A stretch of 64,000 bases of DNA from Alphaproteobacteria bacterium (GTDB lineage: Bacteria > Pseudomonadota > Alphaproteobacteria > Rickettsiales > UBA998). The DNA is taken from contig JAYUJH010000006.1 of assembly GCA_043765375.1 (NCBI GenBank), positions 10,110 through 74,109 of the forward strand, in the 5' to 3' direction. The position numbers and the translations under genes were made by a program. Positions 7,331 to 31,558 of this stretch are shown one piece after another (the first letter of the stretch is position 1; the number at the start of each line of letters is the position of its first letter). The notes under the pieces are model-generated. The model had not been told where the DNA came from. It ran no database searches and saw only the letters and a list, made by a program, of their open reading frames with translations.

Positions 7331-9109
7331 CTACATCGCTTGTTTATCTTGCACCCCGCCTTCACCAAAACCTTCATCACGGAAGCGGCGAACATTAAAT
7401 AATCCTGCATAATTTGAAGTGATTTTATCATGAAAATTGAGGATTGATTCATCTGTGGAAGGCTTGCCGATATAATATCCCTGTCCATATTGCACTCCAG
7501 ATTCAAACAAAAACTCCGCCTCTTTTTGTGTTTCCACCATTTCACCAATCATCATCATATCCAGATTGCGACATAGACTAGCCATCGCTTTTAGCAATTT
7601 GCGCCCCCGTTCTGTTTGCATGGAATCACGGACATAACTGCCATCAATCTTAACAAAATCCACCTGCAAATGACGCAAATAATTAAATGATGATTCCCCC
7701 ACTCCAAAATCATCAAGGCATACGAGATTGCCCTCTTTGCGCAATGTTTGAATGAAATCATTCGCCATTTGCATGTTATCAATCTTGAATGATTCCGTCA
7801 CTTCAATCATCAAATGTGAGCGAACATCATTATATTTACGCAACAAATTGAGGAATGTATCAATAAATAAATTGGAGCTAAGCGAACGCCCCGAAAGATT
7901 GACTGCCAAAGAAACATGCTGCCCCATCTTTTTACGCTCTTGAATGATGCACAAAACCTTTTCTGTTATTGCAAGGTCGCAATCATTAATCAAACCAGCT
8001 TGTTCACCAAATGTGATAAACTCAAATGGATTTTTGAACTTGCCCATATCATGCAACCGCACCAAACATTCGTGATGATGCACAATTCCCGTGCGCAAAT
8101 TGACAATTGGCTGAAATGCTAGCGAGAAAGCGTCCGCACTCAAAGTTTTTTTGAATGTGCCGATATGGTCAAGCGTGATATCTAACATTTCTTCATAGCT
8201 TTCATTCAAGCTGGTGATGCTAAACTTTTCACCTTTATTTTCCGCAAACTTATTAATCGTATAAAGCACAGCATTTGCCAAATCATGCTCGGATAGCGGA
8301 TATTCATCAGATGAAGTTTTTATATTAGTTGCCTCAACTTTTAGATCCAACCCTTTAATTTGCAATTTAGCAATATTTTTAATGCCGTCCACTAGCTCTT
8401 GATTATTAGTATTACCCGGGGTGATGATGGAATATGAACCACGCTCAATGATTTTTGCTGCCTCATTATTAACGGATTTTGTTTTGATATAATCACCAAT
8501 AGATTTAAGCAATTTAACCGCATTATCAGTGCTTAAACTATCCAGCAATATTTGCAATTCTGGAATATCAACAATGGTGATGTTGAGTTCTTCTCCACGC
8601 GCATTGGCTTCAACAATTTGTTTGCAAGCATGAAGGGTGAATATTTCTTTCTCAACTATTCCTTCAATTTGCTCAATTTCCGCCAATTCTTCATAATGTT
8701 GAATTAATGACTCACAGCGCAGTGAAAAATAAAATCTCTCGCATTTGTTTTTGGAATTATCATTTGGAGAATTAATATGTTGAATATTATCATGTTCAAT
8801 ATAAATACCCGACAAACGAAAAGCCATTTCCTCACCATTGGCAGCAATAAAATCAAGCGGGACTGAATCTATACGGTTTTTTTGCTTAATGGTTTCCATG
8901 ATGTTTTTCAACCGACCATGGTGATTATGCGCAATTATCTGTTTGAAATTAAGCCCGATAATATCCGCACTTTTGCGCCCAAGCAAGCCCTGCATTGCAC
9001 CATCAGCAAATACTATAACTCCATCTTGTTCAACTTCAACCAAAATATCTGCACTGGAGAAGGCGAAAGCTGCGAAATTATCACTTGGAATGTTTGGATT
9101 TTTAGTCAT
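7331..9109 (-). CDS. PAS + degenerate GGDEF-like + EAL c-di-GMP phosphodiesterase
   Basis: N-terminal PAS-like region; AFQPIV, ECLVR, AVNLSG, IEVTES, LDDFGVGESS, VKIDG, EMVET, QGYYIGKP. Confidence 0.88.
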   Translation of the reverse strand: MTKNPNIPSDNFAAFAFSSADILVEVEQDGVIVFADGAMQGLLGRKSADIIGLNFKQIIAHNHHGRLKNIMETIKQKNRIDSVPLDFIAANGEEMAFRLSGIYIEHDNIQHINSPNDNSKNKCERFYFSLRCESLIQHYEELAEIEQIEGIVEKEIFTLHACKQIVEANARGEELNITIVDIPELQILLDSLSTDNAVKLLKSIGDYIKTKSVNNEAAKIIERGSYSIITPGNTNNQELVDGIKNIAKLQIKGLDLKVEATNIKTSSDEYPLSEHDLANAVLYTINKFAENKGEKFSITSLNESYEEMLDITLDHIGTFKKTLSADAFSLAFQPIVNLRTGIVHHHECLVRLHDMGKFKNPFEFITFGEQAGLINDCDLAITEKVLCIIQERKKMGQHVSLAVNLSGRSLSSNLFIDTFLNLLRKYNDVRSHLMIEVTESFKIDNMQMANDFIQTLRKEGNLVCLDDFGVGESSFNYLRHLQVDFVKIDGSYVRDSMQTERGRKLLKAMASLCRNLDMMMIGEMVETQKEAEFLFESGVQYGQGYYIGKPSTDESILNFHDKITSNYAGLFNVRRFRDEGFGEGGVQDKQAM

Positions 9110-9430
9110 AATTATTACCAATTTATTTATATTATTACTATGCCAAATAATGATTAATATATTATTAAGTTACATTGTTTTTGTGCATTGCGAGAGGATT
9201 TTTTATGATGCAAATCAAGCATTACCTTCAACTAAATATATAATTAACCATTAATAAATACTTGTTTCAGCAATCAACAATACTTATCAATATTTAATAT
9301 TAACTTGAATTACTTGCATTTTTATTATACCAAATATTCATATAAAAAATATTAATATAAAACGCTTGAGTTTTTTGCATCATTTGTTATGTTGTTGTGG
9401 ATTAAAATAATATTATAATTTTGAGCAAAT

Positions 9431-13381: not shown

Positions 13382-13500
13382 AAAACACTAAGTTAAGATG
13401 AAATCGTAACTTGAAAGACATAATCCCGCACAGAAATATTTCATACATCACTGATATTTCAGTTTATTGTTGCGTTAATGATGATTGTCTTTATGTTGAC

Positions 13501-15225
13501 ATGTTAATGTTGAAATATATCTTAAAATTACGAATAATTTATTTTGTCAAGCTATGCTTGATTGCATCATTATGCTTGATTGCATTTTTACCGTGGCAAA
13601 ACGCATTTGCAGCGCAATCTCGCTATATTGCTCGTTATGAAAACGTTAATTCAGCAAAACATGTTAATGTTGTAAGAAATATTAATGTTGGCAGAGAAGG
13701 CAGAATTACAACACGGAGCAATTCCAGTTATGGTTCAAATCGTTATAATCTTCGCCGTAGACCTAATATTACAGCATATAATGCAACTGATAATTCAAGG
13801 ATAATTGCACCAGAGCTTCAACAAATTGGCCTTGAGCAAAATAAACTTCAAATACGCAACATTAATGATGCCCTGCGACCAAATATTTTACAACCAAATA
13901 TTGCACAATCAAATATTGAGCGAAATAATGTTACCGCAAAAACTGAATTAGTGATAAAACCATTTGAATATTATAATGACGCACCAATTTCAATTGCCCC
14001 CCCTCCCGTTCCTATAATTTCTTCTAAAAATAATATTAATGCGCCTAAAATTGATGAAATAAAAACTATTCAAACAAAACCCACTCAAGCAATAATAGAG
14101 CTTCCAGCGCAACAAATAGCCAAAACAGGTGATGTAATAGATTTTGGCGTGCAACCATTGCAAATGCAGCAAATAAAAACAATTCCGCCAGAAATTATCT
14201 CGCCAAAAGTTGAAGTTCCAGCTCAGGAGCAAGTTCAAAAAGTGGAAGTGCAAGAAATAGAGGTGCAAGAAATAGAAATTAGAGAGGTGACATATAATAA
14301 TGCACCAAAAATTGTGCCAAACACCACATCGCCAAACATAGCCAAAACACAAAATATAACTGCCTCACCAGATAACTCCGAACCAAATATACCCACTCCA
14401 AAAGTCACTGAAATTGAAGTTCCAACCATTAACGCCCCGCCCAGTGTGAAATTAACTGAGCCGCAACCTGATGAAATATCAGCGCAGACAAAAAATATTT
14501 TGCAGAAATTGCCAAATGATATATTTCCAACAGAGCGAATGGAGCGTGGTAATTTTGATGTGAACCGCACAAAGATGCAACAAACCACACCAGATTATGG
14601 CGGAATAGCCCAAGAAATTGGGGCAAGTGTTGCGGTGCGTCGCCAATCATTTGATGTGAATTATGAGTTGGATAAAGCATATAATGCGCTAATTCGTGGT
14701 AATACTGAAATAGCGGTGCAGATTTATCGTGATGTGTTGAATGCTGAGCCAAATAATAAATATGCGCTTTTTGGGTTAGCCACGACTTATCATAAACTTG
14801 GTATGACCAAGCAAGCTCGTCCAATTTATGGCAGATTGCTTGAGCTTGACCCTTATAATAAAGAAGCATTGAACAATTTTCTTGCCTTGGTTGGTGAGGA
14901 AGCTCCCGAATCTGCTATATTATATCTTGAGCAATTAAAAGGGCAGAACTCAGATTTCAGCCCAATTTATGCGCAATTAGCATCGCTTTATTCCAAGCAA
15001 AATAATAACCAGCTTGCGATTGAAAATATGCAAGAGGCGATATTAATTTCTCCCGAAAACTTGGTATATCAATATAATTTAGCGGTGATGTATGATAAAG
15101 CAAAACAAGGCGATAGGGCAGCTATGCTTTATCGCCAATTGGTCAAATCAGGGCTTGATGGCAAAGAATTACCCGCAAGTTTGAGTGATATTCAGAAAAG
15201 ATTAACTTATTTATTGTCTAATTAG
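13501..15225 (+). CDS. Exported protein with long disordered region and C-terminal TPR repeats
   Basis: N-terminal signal/TM segment, P/I/N-rich linker, TPRs (ALFGLATTYHKLG, IYAQLASLYSKQ, YQYNLAVMYDK); start uncertain. Confidence 0.75.
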   Translation: MLMLKYILKLRIIYFVKLCLIASLCLIAFLPWQNAFAAQSRYIARYENVNSAKHVNVVRNINVGREGRITTRSNSSYGSNRYNLRRRPNITAYNATDNSRIIAPELQQIGLEQNKLQIRNINDALRPNILQPNIAQSNIERNNVTAKTELVIKPFEYYNDAPISIAPPPVPIISSKNNINAPKIDEIKTIQTKPTQAIIELPAQQIAKTGDVIDFGVQPLQMQQIKTIPPEIISPKVEVPAQEQVQKVEVQEIEVQEIEIREVTYNNAPKIVPNTTSPNIAKTQNITASPDNSEPNIPTPKVTEIEVPTINAPPSVKLTEPQPDEISAQTKNILQKLPNDIFPTERMERGNFDVNRTKMQQTTPDYGGIAQEIGASVAVRRQSFDVNYELDKAYNALIRGNTEIAVQIYRDVLNAEPNNKYALFGLATTYHKLGMTKQARPIYGRLLELDPYNKEALNNFLALVGEEAPESAILYLEQLKGQNSDFSPIYAQLASLYSKQNNNQLAIENMQEAILISPENLVYQYNLAVMYDKAKQGDRAAMLYRQLVKSGLDGKELPASLSDIQKRLTYLLSN

Positions 15226-15258
15226 GCTATAAAAATATTTTAATCGGAATTATATTAT

Positions 15259-16338
15259 ATGGATATTACGGACTTGCTTGCTGTATCGCACCAAAATCGT
15301 GCATCAGATTTACATTTATCATCAGGAAGCCCACCTATAATCAGGGTAAATGGTGATATAATGCCAATTAAAACCTCGCCCCCGCTCTCGCCCGAGGCAA
15401 TCAAAGAAATGCTTTATTCGGTGATGACAGATCAACAACGAAGCGAATATGAAGGGCAGTGGGAGTTGGATTTTTCCATTTCATTTGGGCAAGCATCTCG
15501 TTTTCGGGTGAATGCTTTCAACACGATGAAAGGCCCCGCCGCAGTTTTCAGGACTATTCCAACCAAAATATTATCGCTTGATGAACTTGGTGCGCCAGAT
15601 ATATTCAAAAAATTATGCGGGCTGCATAAAGGTTTAGTGCTGGTGACTGGTCCTACGGGTAGCGGAAAATCCACCACACTTGCCGCAATAATTGATCATA
15701 TCAACCGCACTCAGCAAAAACATATCATCACGATTGAAGATCCAATAGAGTTTGTGCATCAGTCGCAGAGATGTTTAATCAATCAACGTGAAGTTGGAGC
15801 AAGCACTCGTTCATTCGCTCGCGCACTCAAAAGTTGCTTGCGTGAAGATCCTGATATCATCTTGGTGGGTGAGTTGCGGGATATTGAAACAATCCATTTG
15901 GCGATGACAGCGGCAGAAACAGGGCATTTGGTGATGGGAACATTGCACACCAACACCGCACCAAAAACGATTGACCGCATCATTGATGTGTTCCCAAGTG
16001 CGGATAAAGAAATGGCACGGGCGATGTTATCAGTTTCATTGGAGGCGGTGATTTCTCAAGCATTGCTCAAAACCAAAGATGGCACGGGGCGGGTGGCAGC
16101 GCATGAGATTATGCTTGGAACATCAGCGGTTCGCAATTTAATTCGTGAGGCGAAAATCCCCCAACTTTATTCGGTGATTCAAACAGGCTCCAAAATGGGT
16201 ATGAAAACGATGAAGGAAAGCCTTAATGAACTGGTGGTTGCAGGCAAAATTGATGAGTCTGAAATGCACCGTATTTTAGCAACCAGCAGTGAGATGGATA
16301 CATTACCCAAGCCAACACAGAATAATAATGCTTTTTGA
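15259..16338 (+). CDS. pilT: Type IV pilus retraction ATPase
   Basis: ASDLHL, GPTGSGKSTT, TIEDPIE, LREDPD, AETGHLV.GTLHT, AVRNLIRE (AIRNLIRE motif). Confidence 0.96.
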   Translation: MDITDLLAVSHQNRASDLHLSSGSPPIIRVNGDIMPIKTSPPLSPEAIKEMLYSVMTDQQRSEYEGQWELDFSISFGQASRFRVNAFNTMKGPAAVFRTIPTKILSLDELGAPDIFKKLCGLHKGLVLVTGPTGSGKSTTLAAIIDHINRTQQKHIITIEDPIEFVHQSQRCLINQREVGASTRSFARALKSCLREDPDIILVGELRDIETIHLAMTAAETGHLVMGTLHTNTAPKTIDRIIDVFPSADKEMARAMLSVSLEAVISQALLKTKDGTGRVAAHEIMLGTSAVRNLIREAKIPQLYSVIQTGSKMGMKTMKESLNELVVAGKIDESEMHRILATSSEMDTLPKPTQNNNAF

Positions 16339-17780: not shown

Positions 17781-18392
17781 TCATCGCATTTGTTGCAAAG
17801 CTCTAACAGCTCGCTTATCACCATTTCGTGCAAGTTTTTCCAAAATTAATCGCAATTGTTTGATTTTTTGCGGATTTTTCTGCAACTTCGCATAAGTCAC
17901 TGCTGCCATATAATTACCACGAGTCACACTCAAACGCAATAAATCATCAGCTTTTTCAGGTTGCTCACTCGCAATCAACATCGCCAATTGCTCAGGTGCT
18001 TTGTCATGACCCAACTTGCTTGCGGAATCCAACAATTTGCGCTTATATTCACCATCGGCGAGTTGTTCAGCCGTGATAAATTGCGCACTTGCCACCATTA
18101 ATGCTTGCTCTCGGTTTTGTGGCTCAAGATGGCTTGCCACCTCCAAACATTGTTGCAACATTGCCGTGCGAGCCTTAGATTCTGGAAGCTGTTGCAACAT
18201 TGCCGTGCGAGATTTCATAATTAATTCAGGTGATTTGCTAGCGATTATTTCGGCAAAATCTGCATTGATTTTGGTTGCATCGCCCACTTGCAAATCTCGC
18301 TTAAACTCCCGTAGATTAATCGCAAAAGTGGGAGAGGCAAAAATTGGTGATACAGCACCGCACAATAGCATTATTATGAATATTTTTTTCAT
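17781..18392 (-). CDS. Secreted helical (Sel1/TPR-like) protein
   Basis: Signal peptide; SASKLGHDKA, SVTRGNYMAA and KLARNGDKRA resemble Sel1-type turns. Confidence 0.55.
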   Translation of the reverse strand: MKKIFIIMLLCGAVSPIFASPTFAINLREFKRDLQVGDATKINADFAEIIASKSPELIMKSRTAMLQQLPESKARTAMLQQCLEVASHLEPQNREQALMVASAQFITAEQLADGEYKRKLLDSASKLGHDKAPEQLAMLIASEQPEKADDLLRLSVTRGNYMAAVTYAKLQKNPQKIKQLRLILEKLARNGDKRAVRALQQMR

Positions 18393-18394
18393 TA

Positions 18395-20617
18395 TTAATT
18401 TAACTCCATAAAACAGGCAGAATTTCCACCAGCAAACTCATCTATCCACGGCTTTGCAGCACGGCTCAATTTTGCAACCATTTGTTGCAATCTCACATTT
18501 GCAAAAATATTTGATACACTCATATTATCATTCCAATATGCAACAAAACTCATGTAATTCCTTAAATTAGGGCGGTTGTCAAACATACCCATATCCGTTT
18601 GAAAAATATTGCCATTCTCCCCCGCAGTAAAATTATTCGCAGCTTGTGGCAAAATTAATAACGGATTATAACTCATACTAACAAAATCATGCAGCAAATA
18701 TTGCAATTTTTGCGTTGCCTCTGCCGTAATTTCATCGCCCTGAAGTTGCATCATTCTCACCATTAATGTAAGAGTAGCGATTGATTGACGATTATACCAA
18801 ACCGCCCTCGCCCCCCGTTTCGCCTCTAGTTGCAGCGTTCCAGCAGGCAACGCCCCCGCAGGAAATGTTCCATTCATATTAATTTGTGCTATCGCCCGAT
18901 AAAAACCTAATCTGCCCTCATGATATAATTTTGGATCTTTCGCAATAATTCCATATGCAAGCAGCACCGCATCTGCCATGTAGCGATGATTATTGAAATC
19001 CACTTCACCATCAAACTTCATATTAGCTATCTCAACCAATGGTTGCAACCAGTCATGCAAAATCTCCAGCTCGCTCGCATCAAAATCATCATATACCACA
19101 CTTATTGCAGCCATGACGGGAATAAGTGTTCGCTTTAATGCGTAAATTGCATTATGATGCTTTTCACTGCGCCCAAACGCCTCCGCCCTCGCCCATTTCA
19201 GCAATAATTGTTTCAGCTCCGCCCTCGCTATCGCATCTCCCGCTTTAGCACGACTTGTTTGCAACATCACCACCCACGCAAAATCTTCTGCGGAATGGTC
19301 AGTTCCATAACTATCATCAGCTTTCAAAGCATTAATTGGCTCACCCAACTGTGGCAAAGTGAAATTATCATTACAAACATTTAATCCAATGCTCGTATTT
19401 GATAATAATTTTTGTGGATAAAGTTTTTTGAAAGGCTCAAAAGTAACCATGTTTGGTTGCTCAATATTCACATGTTGAACTGAGTTTTTCAGGCGTTCAA
19501 TCACTGCTTGCGCCGCTTGTTCTTGAGCTTTCAGACCATGTTGACGATATCCATCACGCAGATAATAATGCGCTTTGAGGTTAGCTTTTGGCGTGGCGAT
19601 GTTCTCCGCAACTAGCTGTGCTTGCTCCATTTCTCCAGCTTCTGCCAGCCATTTGACATGTTGCAATATAGCTTTTTCTTGCGGAGAATCTTTCATCATC
19701 AACCACAGAGAATGCAACATTAAATTATCATTTTTTTGAGTATCGTGCTTTTTGGTGGATTGTTCTTCATTATCATTTTTAGTGCGTTTTTCTTTAGCAT
19801 TATTTTTTTGAATCAAATCTGCATTATATATTTTTTGTAATAATTCATTGCGCTGCTCCAATCGTTGATGAAGTGGCGCAATCGCAACCAAATGTAGGGC
19901 ATCATTTAATTTATTTGCATTAATCGCTGCATTAATCGCCATCAAATCAAGCGGTTGCTGTTTGCCATCACGCAAATGCAAACGGTGCAACCCATAGGCT
20001 CTATGGCGGGCGGTTTTTTGACGTTTCAACAACAAATTGGGAGTTTCATAATCACCACTATCAAGCAATGCGGTTGTAACTGCATTCAAAAAATCATCAT
20101 GTGATGGATAGTTTTTCTTTGAGAAATCTTGTAATAATTCAAGCATTTGCTTGGTTTTTGGTTGACCATCATGCAAGGATTGCGCTCGCAAAATCGCTAT
20201 TTTATGGTATGATTTGACTATATCATCGCTCAAACCATCACTCATTTCTAGCGCAATTTCATAGCGATGTTCTCGCAAACTAATTGCCACTAAGTTACTG
20301 ATTACTATATCTTTTGTGAGATAAGGAGTGTTCTCATCAGCAACAAAATCTGCATATAAATCACTCCATGTAGTGAAAGCATTTGATGAACCAAAATCAG
20401 CCTCCGCTTGCAACCATTTTTCTGCTAAAGTTGGCGTTGACGTAGTTGCAGCAACTGCGCCCGTCATGCTTTGAGTTTGATTATCATTCGCAATTACGCT
20501 TGCGCTTTCATTTGCATCTGCATTCGCATTCGCATTCGCATTAGCATTCGCATTCGCATTTGCATTTGCACAAAAAATATTCCCAAATAGCACCATCACC
20601 AACAATAAACGTAGCAT
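18395..20617 (-). CDS. Secreted protein: N-terminal helical region + C-terminal alginate lyase (AlgL/PL5-like) domain
   Basis: Signal peptide; LLKWARAEA, FNNHRY (cf. AlgL NNHSYW), LQLEAKRGARAVWYN (cf. AlgL ELKR.QRALAYH), EFAGGN. Confidence 0.75.
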   Translation of the reverse strand: MLRLLLVMVLFGNIFCANANANANANANANANADANESASVIANDNQTQSMTGAVAATTSTPTLAEKWLQAEADFGSSNAFTTWSDLYADFVADENTPYLTKDIVISNLVAISLREHRYEIALEMSDGLSDDIVKSYHKIAILRAQSLHDGQPKTKQMLELLQDFSKKNYPSHDDFLNAVTTALLDSGDYETPNLLLKRQKTARHRAYGLHRLHLRDGKQQPLDLMAINAAINANKLNDALHLVAIAPLHQRLEQRNELLQKIYNADLIQKNNAKEKRTKNDNEEQSTKKHDTQKNDNLMLHSLWLMMKDSPQEKAILQHVKWLAEAGEMEQAQLVAENIATPKANLKAHYYLRDGYRQHGLKAQEQAAQAVIERLKNSVQHVNIEQPNMVTFEPFKKLYPQKLLSNTSIGLNVCNDNFTLPQLGEPINALKADDSYGTDHSAEDFAWVVMLQTSRAKAGDAIARAELKQLLLKWARAEAFGRSEKHHNAIYALKRTLIPVMAAISVVYDDFDASELEILHDWLQPLVEIANMKFDGEVDFNNHRYMADAVLLAYGIIAKDPKLYHEGRLGFYRAIAQINMNGTFPAGALPAGTLQLEAKRGARAVWYNRQSIATLTLMVRMMQLQGDEITAEATQKLQYLLHDFVSMSYNPLLILPQAANNFTAGENGNIFQTDMGMFDNRPNLRNYMSFVAYWNDNMSVSNIFANVRLQQMVAKLSRAAKPWIDEFAGGNSACFMELN

Positions 20618-20637
20618 AATTCCAACAACCTTATATC

Positions 20638-21498
20638 TTAACGTGTATCAATTTTCACAGTAACTGGCAGGCGAATCCATTCAGTTGGTATAGGGTTTTG
20701 TGGCACAATATAAACCTTCGCCTTTGAATCTTCTGCACCAGTATCATTCATCATAATTTCCGTAACTTTGCCTGTTTGCATGATATCATGGGCTGGAATG
20801 GAAATTACAACCTCCATATCTTTGGCAAGTTTCACCGCATTATCATATGAGAATGTCGCTTCAACCATAGCACCACCATCGGCAGAATCTAAGTTTGGCA
20901 CAATCGCTGCAAAACTTGCTTTCACAACATATATGCGCTCATATATTCCCATAAAACAATAGGCCGCAAGCGCAATCCCAATCAAAGCGAAGGCTACGAA
21001 ATTAACCATTTTGCGTGCGGTTTTTTTTGTGACGGTTGATGCGGGTAATTTGCGGGCAGTGGTGAAGTTTTTGCGTGAAACCACATCAAGCACATCACCA
21101 ACATGAACCATATCACCCGCAACATAAGCTGAGACTAAATATTGCAATAATGATGCACTGCGTTCGTCTAAATCATTGAAGCGACAACCAGCCTTGCTGC
21201 CGTCACTGCTCAAATGGCGAACCTCGCATTTAATTGGCATGACCAGTGAAAATCCATTAAAATCATAATGCAGCTTCAGGTTCAAAATCGTCCCCTGTTT
21301 TAGCTCTATATTATGTGATATCAACGGCTTAACATAAATAGCAATTCCTTGATGCGACCAATCTGCAACTTCATAAATATTGCTATTAAGCTCAATTTTA
21401 ATTGGCAATTGCACCCGCATGTGCTGCCGTTGAACTTCCGCTTCATGCACTATGTTTGAACTTTGAGTTTTATTTGGGCTTTGAGTTTTCGCCTGCAT
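20638..21498 (-). CDS. Alg44-like PilZ membrane protein (c-di-GMP receptor)
   Basis: IVHEAEVQRQHMRVQLP (RxxxR), DWSHQG (DxSxxG), VSRKNFTTARK, one TM helix, periplasmic beta domain. Confidence 0.8.
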   Translation of the reverse strand: MQAKTQSPNKTQSSNIVHEAEVQRQHMRVQLPIKIELNSNIYEVADWSHQGIAIYVKPLISHNIELKQGTILNLKLHYDFNGFSLVMPIKCEVRHLSSDGSKAGCRFNDLDERSASLLQYLVSAYVAGDMVHVGDVLDVVSRKNFTTARKLPASTVTKKTARKMVNFVAFALIGIALAAYCFMGIYERIYVVKASFAAIVPNLDSADGGAMVEATFSYDNAVKLAKDMEVVISIPAHDIMQTGKVTEIMMNDTGAEDSKAKVYIVPQNPIPTEWIRLPVTVKIDTR

Positions 21499-21502
21499 AT
21501 CA

Positions 21503-22960
21503 TTAGCCTTCAATATCCGTCCCCCCGATGGTTATTTTATCAATCAATAATGAAGGCTGACCAACTCCCACTGGAACGGATTGTCCATCTTTACCACATG
21601 TTCCAACGCCATCGTCAAATGCGAGATCGTTCCCAATCGCTTTGATGCGTTGCATTACTTCGGGGCCATTGCCGATTAATGTTGCCCCTTTAATTGGATA
21701 TGTGACAACTCCATTTTCAATCATATAGGCTTCAGATGCAGAAAACACAAACTTGCCCGATGTTATATCAACCTGTCCACCACCAAAATGAACAGCATAA
21801 ACCCCACGTTTCACTGATTTTATCATATCTTCAGGAGCAGCGTCGCCCGCCAACATATATGTGTTAGTCATGCGGGGCAATGGCAAATGCGCATATGATT
21901 CCCGCCGACCATTGCCAGTGAGTGGCATATTCATCAGGCGAGCATTCATACGATCTTGGAGATATCCTTTCAAAATACCATCTTCAATTAATATATTATG
22001 TCCGCTAGGAGTTCCTTCATCATCTATGGTTAAAGAACCACGCTTGCCCATAATTGTGCCATCATCAACTACGGTGACACCTTTGCTTGCAACTTGTTCA
22101 CCAATTCGCCCTGAAAATGTTGAAGTTCCTTTGCGGTTGAAATCGCCTTCCAACCCATGACCAACGGCTTCATGCAGCAACACTCCACACCAGCCATTAC
22201 CAAGCACCACGGGCAATTCACCTGCTGGAGCGGGGCGAGCAGCGAGATTAACCAATGCTTGCCTTAATGCTTCATCTGCTTGCGCTTTCCAATTGGCGGT
22301 GATGATATATTCAGCGTAACCAGAGCGTGCGCCCCTGCCCGCAGAACCACTTTCCATGCGTCCATTTTCTTCCACTACAACGGAGATATTTAAGCGCACC
22401 AAGGGGCGGATATCACGGGCGGAATCAAAATTGGGGCGCAATACCTCAATCACTTGAAAATTACCAATCAACGAGGCGGAAACTTGCTTAATGCGTGCAT
22501 CTTTCGCCCGCAAATACGCATCAATTTCAGTTAATATCTCCACTTTTGCGCTAAACTCAACCCCAGAGATTGGGTTAATGGCAGGATAAAGCGGCGTGTG
22601 CGCCCTATTAACTGACATATTTATATTATTGCTTTTGCCTGATTTTTCAATGGCAACCACAGTTTCTGCTGCCCGCTTGATTGCTTCTTCCGAGAGTTCA
22701 TTTGCATGAGCAAACCCGCATGTTTCACCAAAAACTGAGCGCAACCCAAAACCTTTAGAGATGTTGAATGAGGCGTTGCGAATGCTACCATCATCAAAAC
22801 TAACTGATTCTGTTTGATCATATTCAAGGAATAATTCGCCATCGTCCATGCCCTGCAAAGCATTTTCAACAATGGAAATTGTGCGGTTCTTATCTAGTTC
22901 TGCGCTAAAAAAATCATAATTATCTGTCATATAACAATTATTATTAGCTTGTTTTGTCAT
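21503..22960 (-). CDS. tldD: Metalloprotease TldD
   Basis: LLHEAVGHGLEGDFNRKG, PRMTNTYM, GTCGKDGQSVPVGVGQP. Confidence 0.97.
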   Translation of the reverse strand: MTKQANNNCYMTDNYDFFSAELDKNRTISIVENALQGMDDGELFLEYDQTESVSFDDGSIRNASFNISKGFGLRSVFGETCGFAHANELSEEAIKRAAETVVAIEKSGKSNNINMSVNRAHTPLYPAINPISGVEFSAKVEILTEIDAYLRAKDARIKQVSASLIGNFQVIEVLRPNFDSARDIRPLVRLNISVVVEENGRMESGSAGRGARSGYAEYIITANWKAQADEALRQALVNLAARPAPAGELPVVLGNGWCGVLLHEAVGHGLEGDFNRKGTSTFSGRIGEQVASKGVTVVDDGTIMGKRGSLTIDDEGTPSGHNILIEDGILKGYLQDRMNARLMNMPLTGNGRRESYAHLPLPRMTNTYMLAGDAAPEDMIKSVKRGVYAVHFGGGQVDITSGKFVFSASEAYMIENGVVTYPIKGATLIGNGPEVMQRIKAIGNDLAFDDGVGTCGKDGQSVPVGVGQPSLLIDKITIGGTDIEG

Positions 22961-29217: not shown

Positions 29218-30342
29218 ATGTTGTTAGAAATATCAAAAACAGAAAAACAATTTGTTAAAATTGAAGCATCTAAAAATGATGATTTAAGCGAGCTATCACT
29301 TGAAAAAATGATTGCAGGATACAGAACTGATCAATCAGAAGAATTTATTCTTTCAGAAAATATTTTTGGTGAAGAGCTATTTATGCTTGGAAATCAAGTA
29401 TATACTAAAAATAAAAAAATAGCTGATATAATTGCAATAGACAAAAGAGGAAATGGAGTTATTATTGAGTTAAAAAAAGATAAGGGGAAACTTGGAATAG
29501 AAACGCAGGCTTTGCAATATTTAGTTGAACTTTCAGCGTTCTCGGGCAAGGAATTTATAGAGAAAGCAACTAAGAAAAATTTTACCCATAAAGATAGAAA
29601 TATTGATCAAATATTAGAAGATATTAAAAATTTTGTTGATGATGACGTAACATTGGAAAGCTACAATCAGAAAAGTCGCATTATTTTATTAGCACAAAGT
29701 TTTGATTCTTCAATATTTTCAATAGGAGAGTGGTTAGATTTACAGAACATATCATTTCGTTGTATTGAATATTCATGCTATAAGATAAAAGCTAACGATT
29801 TTATTGACTTTAGCATAAAATTTGACCGTTCTAAAGATACTTTATACAGGATTGCAAATAACAAAAGAACTTTTGCTACAGTTAGAAAAGACACTAAAAT
29901 ATATTGGCATAATATTTCCACAACGCAAGAACAGTGGAATTTTTTACAAGAAAAAGGGATAATATATTGTGGATTTGAAGGGATAGAATGGGATAGAGGA
30001 ACTGTTATTCTAAAAAAATACATCAAGGGTGATACCGTAATTGCGTATGCAAGTCGCAATGTAGGAATTATTGGCTATGGCATGGTTGAGGGAAATTATA
30101 GATTAGTAAGCAAAGAAGAAGCTAATCCAATTAATGGCTGCAGACACTGGCTTGATGTAAAGTGGAAATATACTCTTCCAATTAATCATTCAATAAAAAG
30201 AGCGGAGTTTGAAAAAACAGACAAATATCCTAAGATATATCACCCAGTGCAAACCTCATCTATTTTAGGCGACCAAGAGCAAGCCAAATTATTGCTGGAA
30301 GATATTGCTGAAAAAGCTGCAAAATATGGTAAAGTTTGGTGA
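29218..30342 (+). CDS. PD-(D/E)xK (NucS/RecB-like) nuclease with C-terminal PUA/EVE-like domain
   Basis: IADIIAIDKRGNGVIIELKK...QALQY; C-terminal KGDTVIAYAS..VGIIGYGMV...VKW; visibly more A-rich than neighbours. Confidence 0.65.
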   Translation: MLLEISKTEKQFVKIEASKNDDLSELSLEKMIAGYRTDQSEEFILSENIFGEELFMLGNQVYTKNKKIADIIAIDKRGNGVIIELKKDKGKLGIETQALQYLVELSAFSGKEFIEKATKKNFTHKDRNIDQILEDIKNFVDDDVTLESYNQKSRIILLAQSFDSSIFSIGEWLDLQNISFRCIEYSCYKIKANDFIDFSIKFDRSKDTLYRIANNKRTFATVRKDTKIYWHNISTTQEQWNFLQEKGIIYCGFEGIEWDRGTVILKKYIKGDTVIAYASRNVGIIGYGMVEGNYRLVSKEEANPINGCRHWLDVKWKYTLPINHSIKRAEFEKTDKYPKIYHPVQTSSILGDQEQAKLLLEDIAEKAAKYGKVW

Positions 30343-30346
30343 TTTT

Positions 30347-31558
30347 TTAAGCCCCATCACCCGACTGATATTTCGCCCGCACGGTTGCATAAGCATAATC
30401 AAGCCATGGTAGCACTGATTGCATATCTGTAAGTTCCACCGTTGCCCCGCCCCACAAACGCAAGCCCGCTGGTGCGTCACGATAACCATTCACATCATAA
30501 GCAACATTTTCTTTCTCAAGCATTCCCGCCATTTGCTTGGTTATTTCACGTTGTGCATTATCATTTAAGCCCGCAAACCACTCATCTTTAATCGCCAAAC
30601 AAATTGAAGTGCTGGAGCGAATGGATTTATCCTGCGCCAAGAAATCAGCCCAATCACTAGTTGCAACCCATGATTCCACCGCTGCTAAATTGGCTTTGCT
30701 GCGGTTGATTAGCACTTCTAGCCCGCCAATATTCTCCGCCCAGCGCAAGCCATCTAGTGCATCTTCCACACATAACATTGAGGGCGTATTGATAGTTTCA
30801 CCCGCAAATATTCCTTCAATCAACTTGCCTTTGCTGGTTAAACGCATTATTTTTGGTAGCGGCCATGCTGGAGCATAACTCTCTAGCCTTGCAACTGCCC
30901 GAGGTGAAAGGACAATCATGCCGTGCGCCCCCTCCCCGCCCATTACTTTTTGCCATGACCATGTTACCACGTCCAATTTACTAAAATCCATATCCATTGC
31001 AAAAACTGATGATGTTGCGTCGCAAATGCTAAGCCCTTGGCGTGTTGCATAAATCCAATTGGCATTAGGCACACATACGCCAGAAGTTGTTCCATTCCAG
31101 GTGAAACATACGTCATTCTCCCAATTAACGGCGTTCAAATCACAAATCTCACCATATTTTGCAATCTCGCTGCGACAATTTGGCAGTTTTAATTGTTTAA
31201 CAGCGTCAGTCACCCAACCTTCGCCGAAACTCTCCCATGCGAGCATTTCCACACCACGCGCGCCGAGCATTGTCCACATTGCCATTTCATATGCTCCAGA
31301 GTCAGATGCGGGAACAATTCCAATGCGATAATCTGATGGAATATTTAGCAATTTACGGCTGCGATCAATCACTTCTTTCAACTTGGATTTGCCGATTGAG
31401 GAACGATGCGAACGACCAATTGGTGCATCACTCAACGCATCTAAACTCCAACCAGCCCTTTTGGCACATGGCCCTGATGAAAAACATGGATTATTTGGGC
31501 GAGCAATTGGCTTGATATGCGTTTGAGCGGTTTGTTTGGCTTGTGCTTGTTGCTGCAT
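30347..31558 (-). CDS. serC: Phosphoserine aminotransferase (alphaproteobacterial type)
   Basis: [45 protein letters not shown]. Confidence 0.96.

Follow-up and report, generated by a model that had tools for sequence, protein, structure and literature searches.

A putative reduced and dispersed alginate-type module, with a short Alg44-like protein and a helical module-lyase fusion, in a small alphaproteobacterial genome

Introduction

Alginate synthesis is a model for synthase-dependent polysaccharide secretion, and which periplasmic parts of the machine are structurally required is still argued. In Pseudomonas and Azotobacter, the system is encoded by the genes algD-8-44-K-E-G-X-L-I-J-F-A. 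According to the parts of two papers drawn on here, Alg8 binds Alg44, whose residues R17 and R21 bind cyclic di-GMP (c-di-GMP) (PMC4436075), and AlgL is a periplasmic clearing enzyme that is required for viability during alginate production, although several divergent hypotheses of its role have been put forward (PMC8829089). Here, we examine a three-gene module at positions 17781-21498 of a 64-kb stretch of alphaproteobacterial DNA from contig JAYUJH010000006.1. We refer to the whole stretch as the window; it is positions 10110-74109 of contig C6 of a 1.83-Mb genome, G000, which is assembled in 44 contigs and is 99.7% complete. The three genes encode a short Alg44-like protein, a helical module fused to a lyase of polysaccharide lyase family 5 (PL5), and a helical protein of 203 amino acids (aa), P203.

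Reduced alginate loci have been described before. Bundalovic-Torma et al. (2020, PMC7112194) reported "atypical" alginate operons that are rearranged and have lost algKE or algGXLIJF subsets, with increased divergence of alg44 and algX, and gene loss as such is therefore not new. The part of that paper drawn on here has no Alg44 with an internal periplasmic deletion, no helical-AlgL fusion and no alphaproteobacterial examples, while its figure S5 and tables may bear on the point. In the part of PMC11890756 drawn on here, PL5 members without an assigned subfamily in CAZy are listed from Agrobacterium, Rhizobium, Jeongeupella and Microvirga. A full-text literature search turned up no account of alphaproteobacterial alg8/alg44 clusters that contain AlgG, nor, supplements aside, an internally deleted Alg44 clade, a helical-AlgL fusion or the P203 family; the supplements of PMC7112194 and PMC11890756 may list such loci. 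We find that such alphaproteobacterial clusters exist in Microvirga, Rhizobium, Agrobacterium and metagenome-assembled genomes (MAGs) labelled Rickettsiales or Alphaproteobacteria. They contain alg8, alg44, a gene for a large helical/TPR-AlgG protein, algL and genes for Sel1 proteins, with or without AlgX/J, AlgI and AlgF.

The genome studied here resembles the Pseudomonas and Azotobacter system in having an Alg8-like family 2 glycosyltransferase (GT2), an Alg44-like protein with a PilZ domain with intact motifs and a transmembrane segment, a periplasmic PL5 lyase of the AlgL type, and AlgD-like and AlgA-like precursor enzymes. It differs in that the genes are dispersed; that searches of the genome, which did not cover AlgF, gave no AlgE, AlgG, AlgX/J or AlgI; that its Alg44 is shorter by ~70 periplasmic residues; that its AlgL is fused to a helical module; and that a 203-aa protein without a Sel1 signature stands in the slot of AlgK. 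The likeness to the alphaproteobacterial cluster is closer in that all four retained genes are direct homologues of cluster genes and the gene order matches in one relative, G014. In contrast to that cluster, however, what is left of the large protein is its N-terminal module, attached to the lyase, with no TPR or AlgG part, P203 replaces the Sel1 proteins that follow algL, and alg8 is unlinked, which it is here only.

We consider it probable that the trio is the periplasm-facing core of an alginate-type (Alg8/Alg44) exopolysaccharide system of the synthase-dependent kind, which has been reduced and dispersed and makes mannuronan under c-di-GMP gating, and we hold the identities of the parts with high confidence. 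An earlier reading of the window by eye and open reading frame, which we call the sequence-only reading, had named the module as the best candidate for an undescribed system. It is rather a variant, because a fuller alginate-type cluster, from which the module derives by reduction, is widespread in Alphaproteobacteria. The module is not new in kind but a naturally occurring, minimal form of the familiar machinery for a biofilm polysaccharide.

Results

Three tightly spaced genes behind tldD

The module is a tandem trio on the minus strand, with genes at 20638-21498, 18395-20617 and 17781-18392 and intergenic gaps of 20 and 2 bp. It lies directly behind tldD (21503-22960, minus strand; NCBIfam TldD equivalog, E 6.6e-178), and the junction sequence reads as the stop codon of tldD, 4 bp, and then the ATG of the alg44-like gene. 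The open reading frame coordinates confirm the tight spacing, and the distance from tldD, that the sequence-only reading had described. Between tldD and the alg44-like gene, the minus strand has no terminator-like site. Promoter- and terminator-like sites were at chance level (15 found against 19.1 expected from shuffled sequence), and since this count is at or below expectation, a promoter-like site within the 3′ end of tldD is not evidence. The downstream neighbor of the gene for P203 is a polyhydroxyalkanoate depolymerase gene on the opposite strand.

Pfam PilZ and Pfam Alginate_lyase each match once in the whole genome, both times in this module. As the sequence-only reading had stated, alg8, algD, algE and algG are all absent from the 64-kb window. 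Logan contigs from two runs of one study span the junction of tldD and the alg44-like gene with zero differences; these runs may be the source samples of the assembly and hence are not independent of it. The two DNA runs that carry the stretch are labelled "biofilm metagenome", and they too may be the assembly source. They are the only runs listed for the stretch, with no RNA run among them.

An Alg44-like protein with an internal deletion

The first gene (20638-21498, minus strand) encodes, from its ATG, an Alg44-like protein in a short form of 286 aa, with a cytoplasmic PilZ domain, one transmembrane helix and a shortened periplasmic domain. Its assignment draws on the Pfam PilZ match, Alg44 relatives in the PDB, the names of homologues and its clade in a tree. 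The PilZ domain (residues 24-122; 21133-21429, minus strand; Pfam E 6.6e-10) carries the c-di-GMP-binding motifs R24xxxR28 and D46xS48xxG51, and R24, R28, D46, S48 and G51 are invariant across 22 aligned relatives, so the motifs are intact as had been claimed. The closest solved relatives are the Alg44 PilZ domains 4rt0, 4rt1 and 4xrn (E 1.4e-6 to 3.6e-6, with 4rt0 at 1.4e-6), to which the motif residues align. A word-based search gave 25 homologues, of which 11, the window's own record included, are 280-286 aa long and most others 349-387 aa, and several of these longer proteins carry the source names Alg44 or mannuronan synthase. Together with the position of the gene after an alg8 homologue in relatives, this places the protein with Alg44.

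A Kyte-Doolittle window scan gave one hydrophobic segment, with a peak of 2.37, which is the single predicted transmembrane helix (residues 161-187; 20938-21018, minus strand). Behind it, residues 188-286 (20641-20937, minus strand) align to the long Alg44 forms as a putative remnant of the periplasmic membrane-fusion-type domain. In the alignment, a block of ~70 residues just after the membrane helix is missing in 11 of 11 short forms when compared with 11 long forms. The two halves of the short form match long-form residues 153-216 and 271-351, and the last ~80 residues still align. Pfam HlyD_3 was matched by all three long forms scanned (E 2e-9 to 2e-6) and by none of the three short forms scanned, and two of those three long forms also gave sub-threshold biotin-lipoyl/barrel-sandwich matches.

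A maximum-likelihood tree built from 22 sequences groups the short forms in one clade with a support of 100/100. With midpoint rooting, this clade nests among long forms, with Microvirga and Rhizobium across the root. The simplest reading of the midpoint-rooted tree is that a single deletion event would lie behind all short Alg44 proteins. A metagenome scan with the short-Alg44 alignment yielded only long-type loci (16, with 30-43% identity) and no further reduced module.

A PL5 lyase with an N-terminal helical module

The second gene (18395-20617, minus strand) encodes a 740-aa protein which, from its open reading frame and its AlphaFold2 model, comprises a signal peptide, an (Asn-Ala)n stretch, a helical module and a PL5 lyase. 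The model was built from a 46-row alignment and has a mean pLDDT of 84.7 and a pTM of 0.81. The lyase domain (residues 421-740; 18398-19357, minus strand) was delimited with Pfam Alginate_lyase (PF05426), which covers residues 501-646 at E 1.3e-13, and with two structure comparisons. Foldseek gave 24 matches at E <= 0.001, every one of them a PL5 entry (A1-III, Smlt1473, PanPL and AlgL; TMt 0.69-0.78). With VIA, which is independent of Foldseek, model residues 378-740 gave Z 32.4 to A1-III (4e1y_A; rmsd 3.2, 324 aligned) and Z 28.0 both to Smlt1473 (7fhu_A) and to Pseudomonas aeruginosa AlgL (4ozw_A). From these comparisons of the model, we conclude that the lyase half, as modelled, has the PL5 (alpha/alpha) toroid fold that an AlgL-type domain should have.

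The active site, which had been called AlgL-like from the sequence, is also in place. In HMMER alignments, NNH(542-544) aligns to the NNH of Smlt1473 and A1-III, with H544 opposite the His that is replaced in the Smlt1473-H168A entry, and RGxRAxWY(601-608) pairs with RGQRALHY of Smlt1473. Residues N543, H544, R604 and Y608 are invariant in all five fusion proteins, and across 46 sequences the conservation of R604 and Y608 is 90% or more. Catalytic roles are given for His192 and Tyr246 in A1-III in the part of PMC11890756 drawn on here, and for R249 and Y256 in AlgL in that of PMC8829089.

The N-terminal helical module (residues 63-369; 19511-20431, minus strand) is the part that the sequence-only reading had called a scaffold. 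Residues ~63-375 are modelled as all-helical with a pLDDT mostly >80, and many of them are invariant in the five fusion proteins. The N-terminal half of the fusion has no Pfam match, and within the full-length model its module gave only generic TPR-like matches (VIA Z ~12, rmsd >15). In relatives from the same family, the gene between alg44 and the lyase gene encodes a protein of 977-1281 aa. In one example, from G011 (1205 aa), Pfam placed Beta_helix and NosD close to the C-terminus and matched TPR weakly, and the C-terminus is an AlgG homologue (4nk6, poly(beta-D-mannuronate) C5-epimerase, E 2.2e-68). When we aligned a profile of the five fusion proteins to one of nine large proteins with hhalign, fusion residues 63-369 matched the first ~310 residues of the large proteins (probability 98.8%, E 5.7e-17, 285 columns). 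Because of this profile-profile match, we identify the "scaffold" of the fusion as the N-terminal module of the helical/TPR-AlgG protein. Thus, the fusion of a scaffold to a lyase stands, while the scaffold is homologous to the N-terminus of that protein and not to AlgK. The simplest history would be that loss of the TPR and epimerase parts joined the helical module to the lyase.

This architecture is rare. An exhaustive search of 1.84 billion representatives, which superseded a word-based search that had given a single match for the 740-aa protein, found 93 relatives at E <= 0.001, and both halves of the fusion align in only three of them (P0001, P0027 and P0028). Beyond those three representatives, G014 carries one more fusion protein. 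Nearly all others of the 93 are stand-alone lyases of ~360-400 aa.

Between the signal-like segment and the helical module, a hexanucleotide tandem repeat (20509-20570, no strand assigned; Tandem Repeats Finder, period 6, 10.3 copies, 89% matches) encodes the (Asn-Ala)n stretch. The stretch follows the signal-like segment directly, has a low pLDDT (residues 18-52) and is absent from the four other fusion proteins. The repeat could differ in length among strains.

P203 in the slot of the Sel1-repeat proteins

The third gene (17781-18392, minus strand) encodes P203, a putative small secreted helical-repeat protein of 203 aa without a family, so described from its model and from its place in the slot of the Sel1-repeat gene of relatives. 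It has no Pfam match at E <= 0.1 and no NCBIfam match. A word-based search returned its own record, P0119 (100%), and one homologue at 73% identity. In addition, G014 encodes a 196-aa homologue, 29% identical, at the same position directly after its fusion gene. The N-terminus of P203 is hydrophobic and signal-like. By eye, the sequence does not meet a lipobox, as the sole Cys in the N-terminal hydrophobic stretch follows Leu-Leu, with no small residue.

The model of P203 is all-helical, with 11 helices and a pLDDT of 86.7, and was built from an alignment of only three rows. Its top Foldseek match is the TPR protein MamA (E 2.7e-3), while Sel1 proteins match at TMq 0.44-0.55, which is weak and generic. 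Its structure neighbors in the Atlas are mostly Sel1 clusters (TM 0.56-0.68), and the best E in a profile search of PDB sequences was 0.74. The slot behind the lyase gene is always filled in relatives by a gene for a Sel1-repeat protein of 308-990 aa. We considered whether P203 is a shrunken form of such a protein; hhalign of P203 against the Sel1 proteins of the same slot gave a probability of 5% (E 0.007), which leaves that idea unsupported. The sequence-only reading had called the third protein secreted, Sel1/TPR-like and reminiscent of AlgK. The signal-like N-terminus and the all-helical model agree with the first part of this description. The weak likeness of the model, however, is only generically to TPR and Sel1 proteins, and P203 may best be described as a rare helical-repeat periplasmic protein that occupies an AlgK-like slot, not as a demonstrated AlgK. 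A complex prediction of P203 (residues 23-203) with the fusion protein (residues 55-740) gave a score of 0.00, which we take as no verdict and use neither for nor against binding.

Synthase and precursor genes on other contigs

The sequence-only reading had proposed a search of the genome for an Alg8-like GT2, a GDP-mannose dehydrogenase and AlgE. The first two are present on other contigs and AlgE was not found. The Alg8-like GT2 (508 aa; C8:91685-93211) matches Pfam Glyco_tranf_2_3 (E 1.4e-27) and Glyco_trans_2_3 (E 6.8e-16) and has three hydrophobic segments. It is 60-69% identical to the GT2 whose gene immediately precedes alg44 in relatives. In the Atlas, the three clusters closest to it bear the names Alg8 or mannuronan synthase (score 0.99, structure TM 0.95), which we treat as a lead only, and the protein has no sequence match in the PDB. 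The AlgD-like dehydrogenase gene (C1:44537-45817) matches GDP-mannose 6-dehydrogenase AlgD, 1mfz, over its full length at E 1.1e-81, whereas its best match to a UDP-glucose dehydrogenase is only E 3.8e-65. An AlgA-like gene is on C35, and a Ugd-like (UDP-glucose 6-dehydrogenase) gene adjoins a GalU-like gene on C41. The components are dispersed over at least four contigs.

We rejected the idea that misassembly had separated alg8 from alg44: contigs from another assembler bridge the junction of tldD and the alg44-like gene, and alg8 and alg44 are both >20 kb from contig ends.

With the synthase found, we could weigh the two alternatives that the sequence-only reading had offered, a split, divergent c-di-GMP-controlled polyuronate secretion system and a repurposed lyase apparatus. 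In the latter, the PilZ protein would gate a periplasmic lyase that acts, independently of any synthase, on foreign alginate or polyuronate from a biofilm. This would fit the lack of a synthase beside the trio in the window and the label "biofilm metagenome" of the runs that carry this DNA, which are possibly its source and so not independent. But an Alg8 homologue of the same lineage is kept in the genome, alg44 and the lyase gene accompany alg8 in every uncut related locus, and no uptake or uronate-catabolism genes were noticed beside the module, though these were not searched for genome-wide. We therefore regard a repurposed lyase as very improbable, and the split system is favored because Alg8-like, AlgD-like and AlgA-like genes are present on other contigs.

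The precursor genes also bear on which polymer is made. The same machinery could make a different acidic polysaccharide, for example of a polyglucuronate type, that the PL5 domain would trim. The UDP-glucose 6-dehydrogenase gene beside the GalU-like gene on C41 would suit this explanation, as would the best sequence match of the lyase, Smlt1473, which is titled a multi-functional polysaccharide lyase, the failure of the NCBIfam scan to assign the GT2 to a family, and the unassigned CAZy subfamily of the alphaproteobacterial PL5 group in the part of PMC11890756 drawn on here. On the other side, the relatives' cluster encodes a true AlgG mannuronan C5-epimerase domain and has algD-like and algA-like genes inside it, the second dehydrogenase of this genome is nearest to GDP-mannose 6-dehydrogenase, and the Atlas clusters nearest to the GT2 carry the names Alg8 or mannuronan synthase. 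We judge another polymer to be rather improbable, and mannuronan is the product that we adopt below.

The modification genes were sought with the relatives' AlgG-containing, ALGX and MBOAT proteins as tblastn queries, and nothing in the genome matched at E <= 1e-4. PF03062 (MBOAT) has no match in the genome. Neither has PF16822 (ALGX), whose control matched nowhere, although tblastn with the relatives' ALGX proteins was also negative. About 10 kb past the end of the window, a stretch at C6:84293-84664 (plus strand) gave a sub-threshold match to Beta_helix PF13229 (18.7 bits, E 0.0012) with three stops in frame. It is probably a chance match and not a relic of AlgG, as tblastn with the AlgG-containing protein missed it.

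The genome encodes c-di-GMP turnover enzymes, with four GGDEF and three EAL matches, the latter including the PAS-EAL gene at 7331-9121 (minus strand; Pfam EAL E 3.5e-59, PAS_9 E 1.4e-7), which is 8.7 kb from the module and had been noted as about 9 kb away.

Gene order and distribution in relatives

Scanning species-representative genomes with the lyase alignment gave 42 loci. Some are in MAGs labelled Rickettsiales, Alphaproteobacteria or Micavibrio, the others in Microvirga, Rhizobium, Agrobacterium and Pararhizobium. Upstream of the lyase gene, 38 of these loci have alg8 and alg44 in the same orientation, and the remaining four are cut by contig ends. An algD-like gene precedes alg8 in the Microvirga and Rhizobium loci, and an algA-like gene follows alg44 in the Microvirga loci. 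Genomes of Microvirga, Rhizobium and Agrobacterium commonly have alginate-type clusters with a true AlgG domain, and the lyases of these three genera in our set belong to genera of the unassigned CAZy PL5 members. Relative to the genes retained here, identities in the alphaproteobacterial clusters are 47-69% for alg8, 22-45% for alg44 and 33-43% for the lyase.

The fusion, the short Alg44 and a P203 homologue occur together in only one of the 42 loci, L029, which is that of G014. Its order is alg8, short alg44, fusion, the 196-aa P203 homologue, an ALGX-domain protein and an MBOAT protein. The genes of the module thus co-occur elsewhere, in a row and behind alg8. A short Alg44 and a fusion are likely co-located in three further sources as well, in each of which the two proteins come from contigs of equal length (752,366, 7,880 and 5,210).

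Among 40 relatives searched, the lyase was found in 8 of 17 from the same family and 0 of 23 from other families of the order; the corresponding counts are 10 of 17 and 1 of 23 for alg8, and 11 of 17 and 1 of 23 for alg44. The genes alg8 and alg44 are adjacent in G014, G009, G011, G008, G004, G002, G007 and G017. Relatives whose contigs are uncut at that point have alg8 and alg44 on one contig, and G000 alone has both deep inside different contigs.

This distribution raises the main rival to our reading, which is that the trio and a stray alg8 are a decaying remnant, left from a cluster that is being lost in a shrinking genome, with no polymer made or exported. AlgG-like, AlgX/J, AlgI and AlgE proteins were not found in the genome, which is small (1.83 Mb) and in which alg8 is unlinked, and the cluster is patchy in the family, as the counts above show. 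In the complete genome G010, which has no alg8 or lyase match, an alg44-like stretch (G010:C22:390669-391193) holds one TGA and one TAG and appears to be a pseudogene remnant of the cluster. In G000, however, all four open reading frames are intact, no variation is seen in the PilZ motifs or in the catalytic residues of the lyase, and the AlgD-like and AlgA-like precursor genes are kept. Furthermore, the combination of a short Alg44 and a fusion is kept across lineages that are only 33-45% identical, which is hard to square with neutral decay. We consider decay unlikely and continue with the reading of the module as the core of a working, reduced system.

Several relatives have a second, divergent alg8-like gene, 35-37% identical (G011:C8:65321-66793, G002:C152:3338-4786, G005:C54:7531-8988 and G008:C11:377066-380216). 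In G008, an alg44-like gene of 25% identity adjoins it. These genes suggest a paralogous Alg8/Alg44 system in several relatives, which G000 would lack.

Discussion

Our account of the module takes activity, substrate, c-di-GMP control, protein contacts and export route from the Pseudomonas system. The AlgA-like enzyme (C35) and the AlgD-like dehydrogenase (C1) would supply GDP-mannuronate, which the Alg8-like GT2 (C8) would polymerise. The short Alg44-like protein is predicted to activate Alg8 once its PilZ domain binds c-di-GMP. In the periplasm, the helical module of the fusion protein would tether the PL5 lyase at the machine, and the lyase would clear polymer that fails to be exported. The clearing role described for AlgL in the part of PMC8829089 drawn on here fits the retention of a lyase in so stripped a system. 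P203 would be a small helical-repeat accessory in the slot of the relatives' Sel1-repeat (AlgK-like) protein. The predicted product is unmodified polymannuronate, because no epimerase or acetylation genes were found.

The module could have arisen from a fuller alphaproteobacterial cluster of alg8, alg44, helical/TPR-AlgG, algL, Sel1, AlgX/J and AlgI genes. One internal deletion would have given the short alg44, and loss of the TPR-AlgG part would have fused the helical module to algL. In G000 only, a rearrangement would then have moved alg8 away and left three genes behind tldD.

Several observations weigh against a working mannuronan system. The genes alg8 (C8) and alg44 (C6) are unlinked in this genome, and for that reason their co-regulation is not evident. 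The AlgE family Alginate_exp (PF13372) has no match in the 99.7%-complete genome, in a search whose control matched 1 of 14 genomes, and the related clusters likewise yielded no recognisable porin. As judged from its alignment to the long forms, the short Alg44 is without part of the domain thought to bridge the periplasm, with HlyD_3 undetected. The NCBIfam scan of the GT2 gave no family at E <= 0.01. The closest lyase by sequence, Smlt1473, has the word "multi-functional" in its PDB title, and the substrate is not fixed by sequence. Finally, the cluster is patchy in the family and decaying in at least one relative (G010), and the genes here may have lost their function.

A bolder form of our reading is that Alg8, the short Alg44, the helical module-AlgL fusion and P203 are a self-sufficient four-protein mannuronan secretion machine. 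Such a machine may need neither AlgK/AlgE-type export nor the AlgG and AlgX scaffolds, nor the barrel-sandwich part of Alg44. We put this forward as a tentative and somewhat doubtful proposal. If it is true, the fusion would be natural evidence that the lyase docks into the trans-envelope complex via the helical module, and P203 would be a new minimal adaptor that replaces the large Sel1 proteins.

The lineage can be read as a natural deletion series, in which relatives have the full cluster and G014 has lost the AlgG part while keeping the acetylation genes. The present genome would stand at its end, where the synthase, a shortened Alg44, a lyase joined to the helical module and a 203-aa helical protein are all that is left. 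If the system is active, it would define a minimal gene set for mannuronan production and offer a compact system for reconstitution, and a docking role would be indicated for the conserved N-terminal helical module. An inactive system would instead record the order in which the machine is dismantled in a small genome.

Other features of the window and the genome

Elsewhere in the window, the plus strand at 13411-16338 encodes a protein of 604 aa that has a long low-complexity region rich in Pro, Gln and Ile, with TPR repeats at its C-terminus, and that is followed by a 359-aa PilT-like T2SSE ATPase. At 29218-31558 there are open reading frames of 374 aa (plus strand) and 403 aa (minus strand) without a Pfam match at E <= 1e-4.

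Just upstream of the alg8-like gene, C8:86486-91379 (plus strand) encodes secreted proteins of 1138 aa, with long Gly/Ala/Leu/Asn-rich repeats, and 479 aa, which is Cys/Gly-rich. We considered these as parts of the system and dropped them, as they have a counterpart in 0 of the 42 related loci. On C14, a 537-aa Sel1-repeat protein with a lipoprotein-like N-terminus (C14:38041-39654, minus strand) is 26% identical (E 1e-34) to a 670-aa Sel1 protein encoded divergently beside alg8 in G014. It is a possible AlgK-like partner that is now unlinked.

One other c-di-GMP receptor was noticed in the genome, also on C14. It is a 693-aa NfrB-like GT2 (C14:12994-15075, minus strand) with an N-terminal c-di-GMP-binding domain of the MshEN type and weak matches to NfrB, cellulose synthase and PgaC. 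The gene after it (C14:15060-15911, minus strand) encodes a 283-aa secreted protein that resembles an outer-membrane protein, and the pair is a candidate for a second c-di-GMP-linked polysaccharide system.

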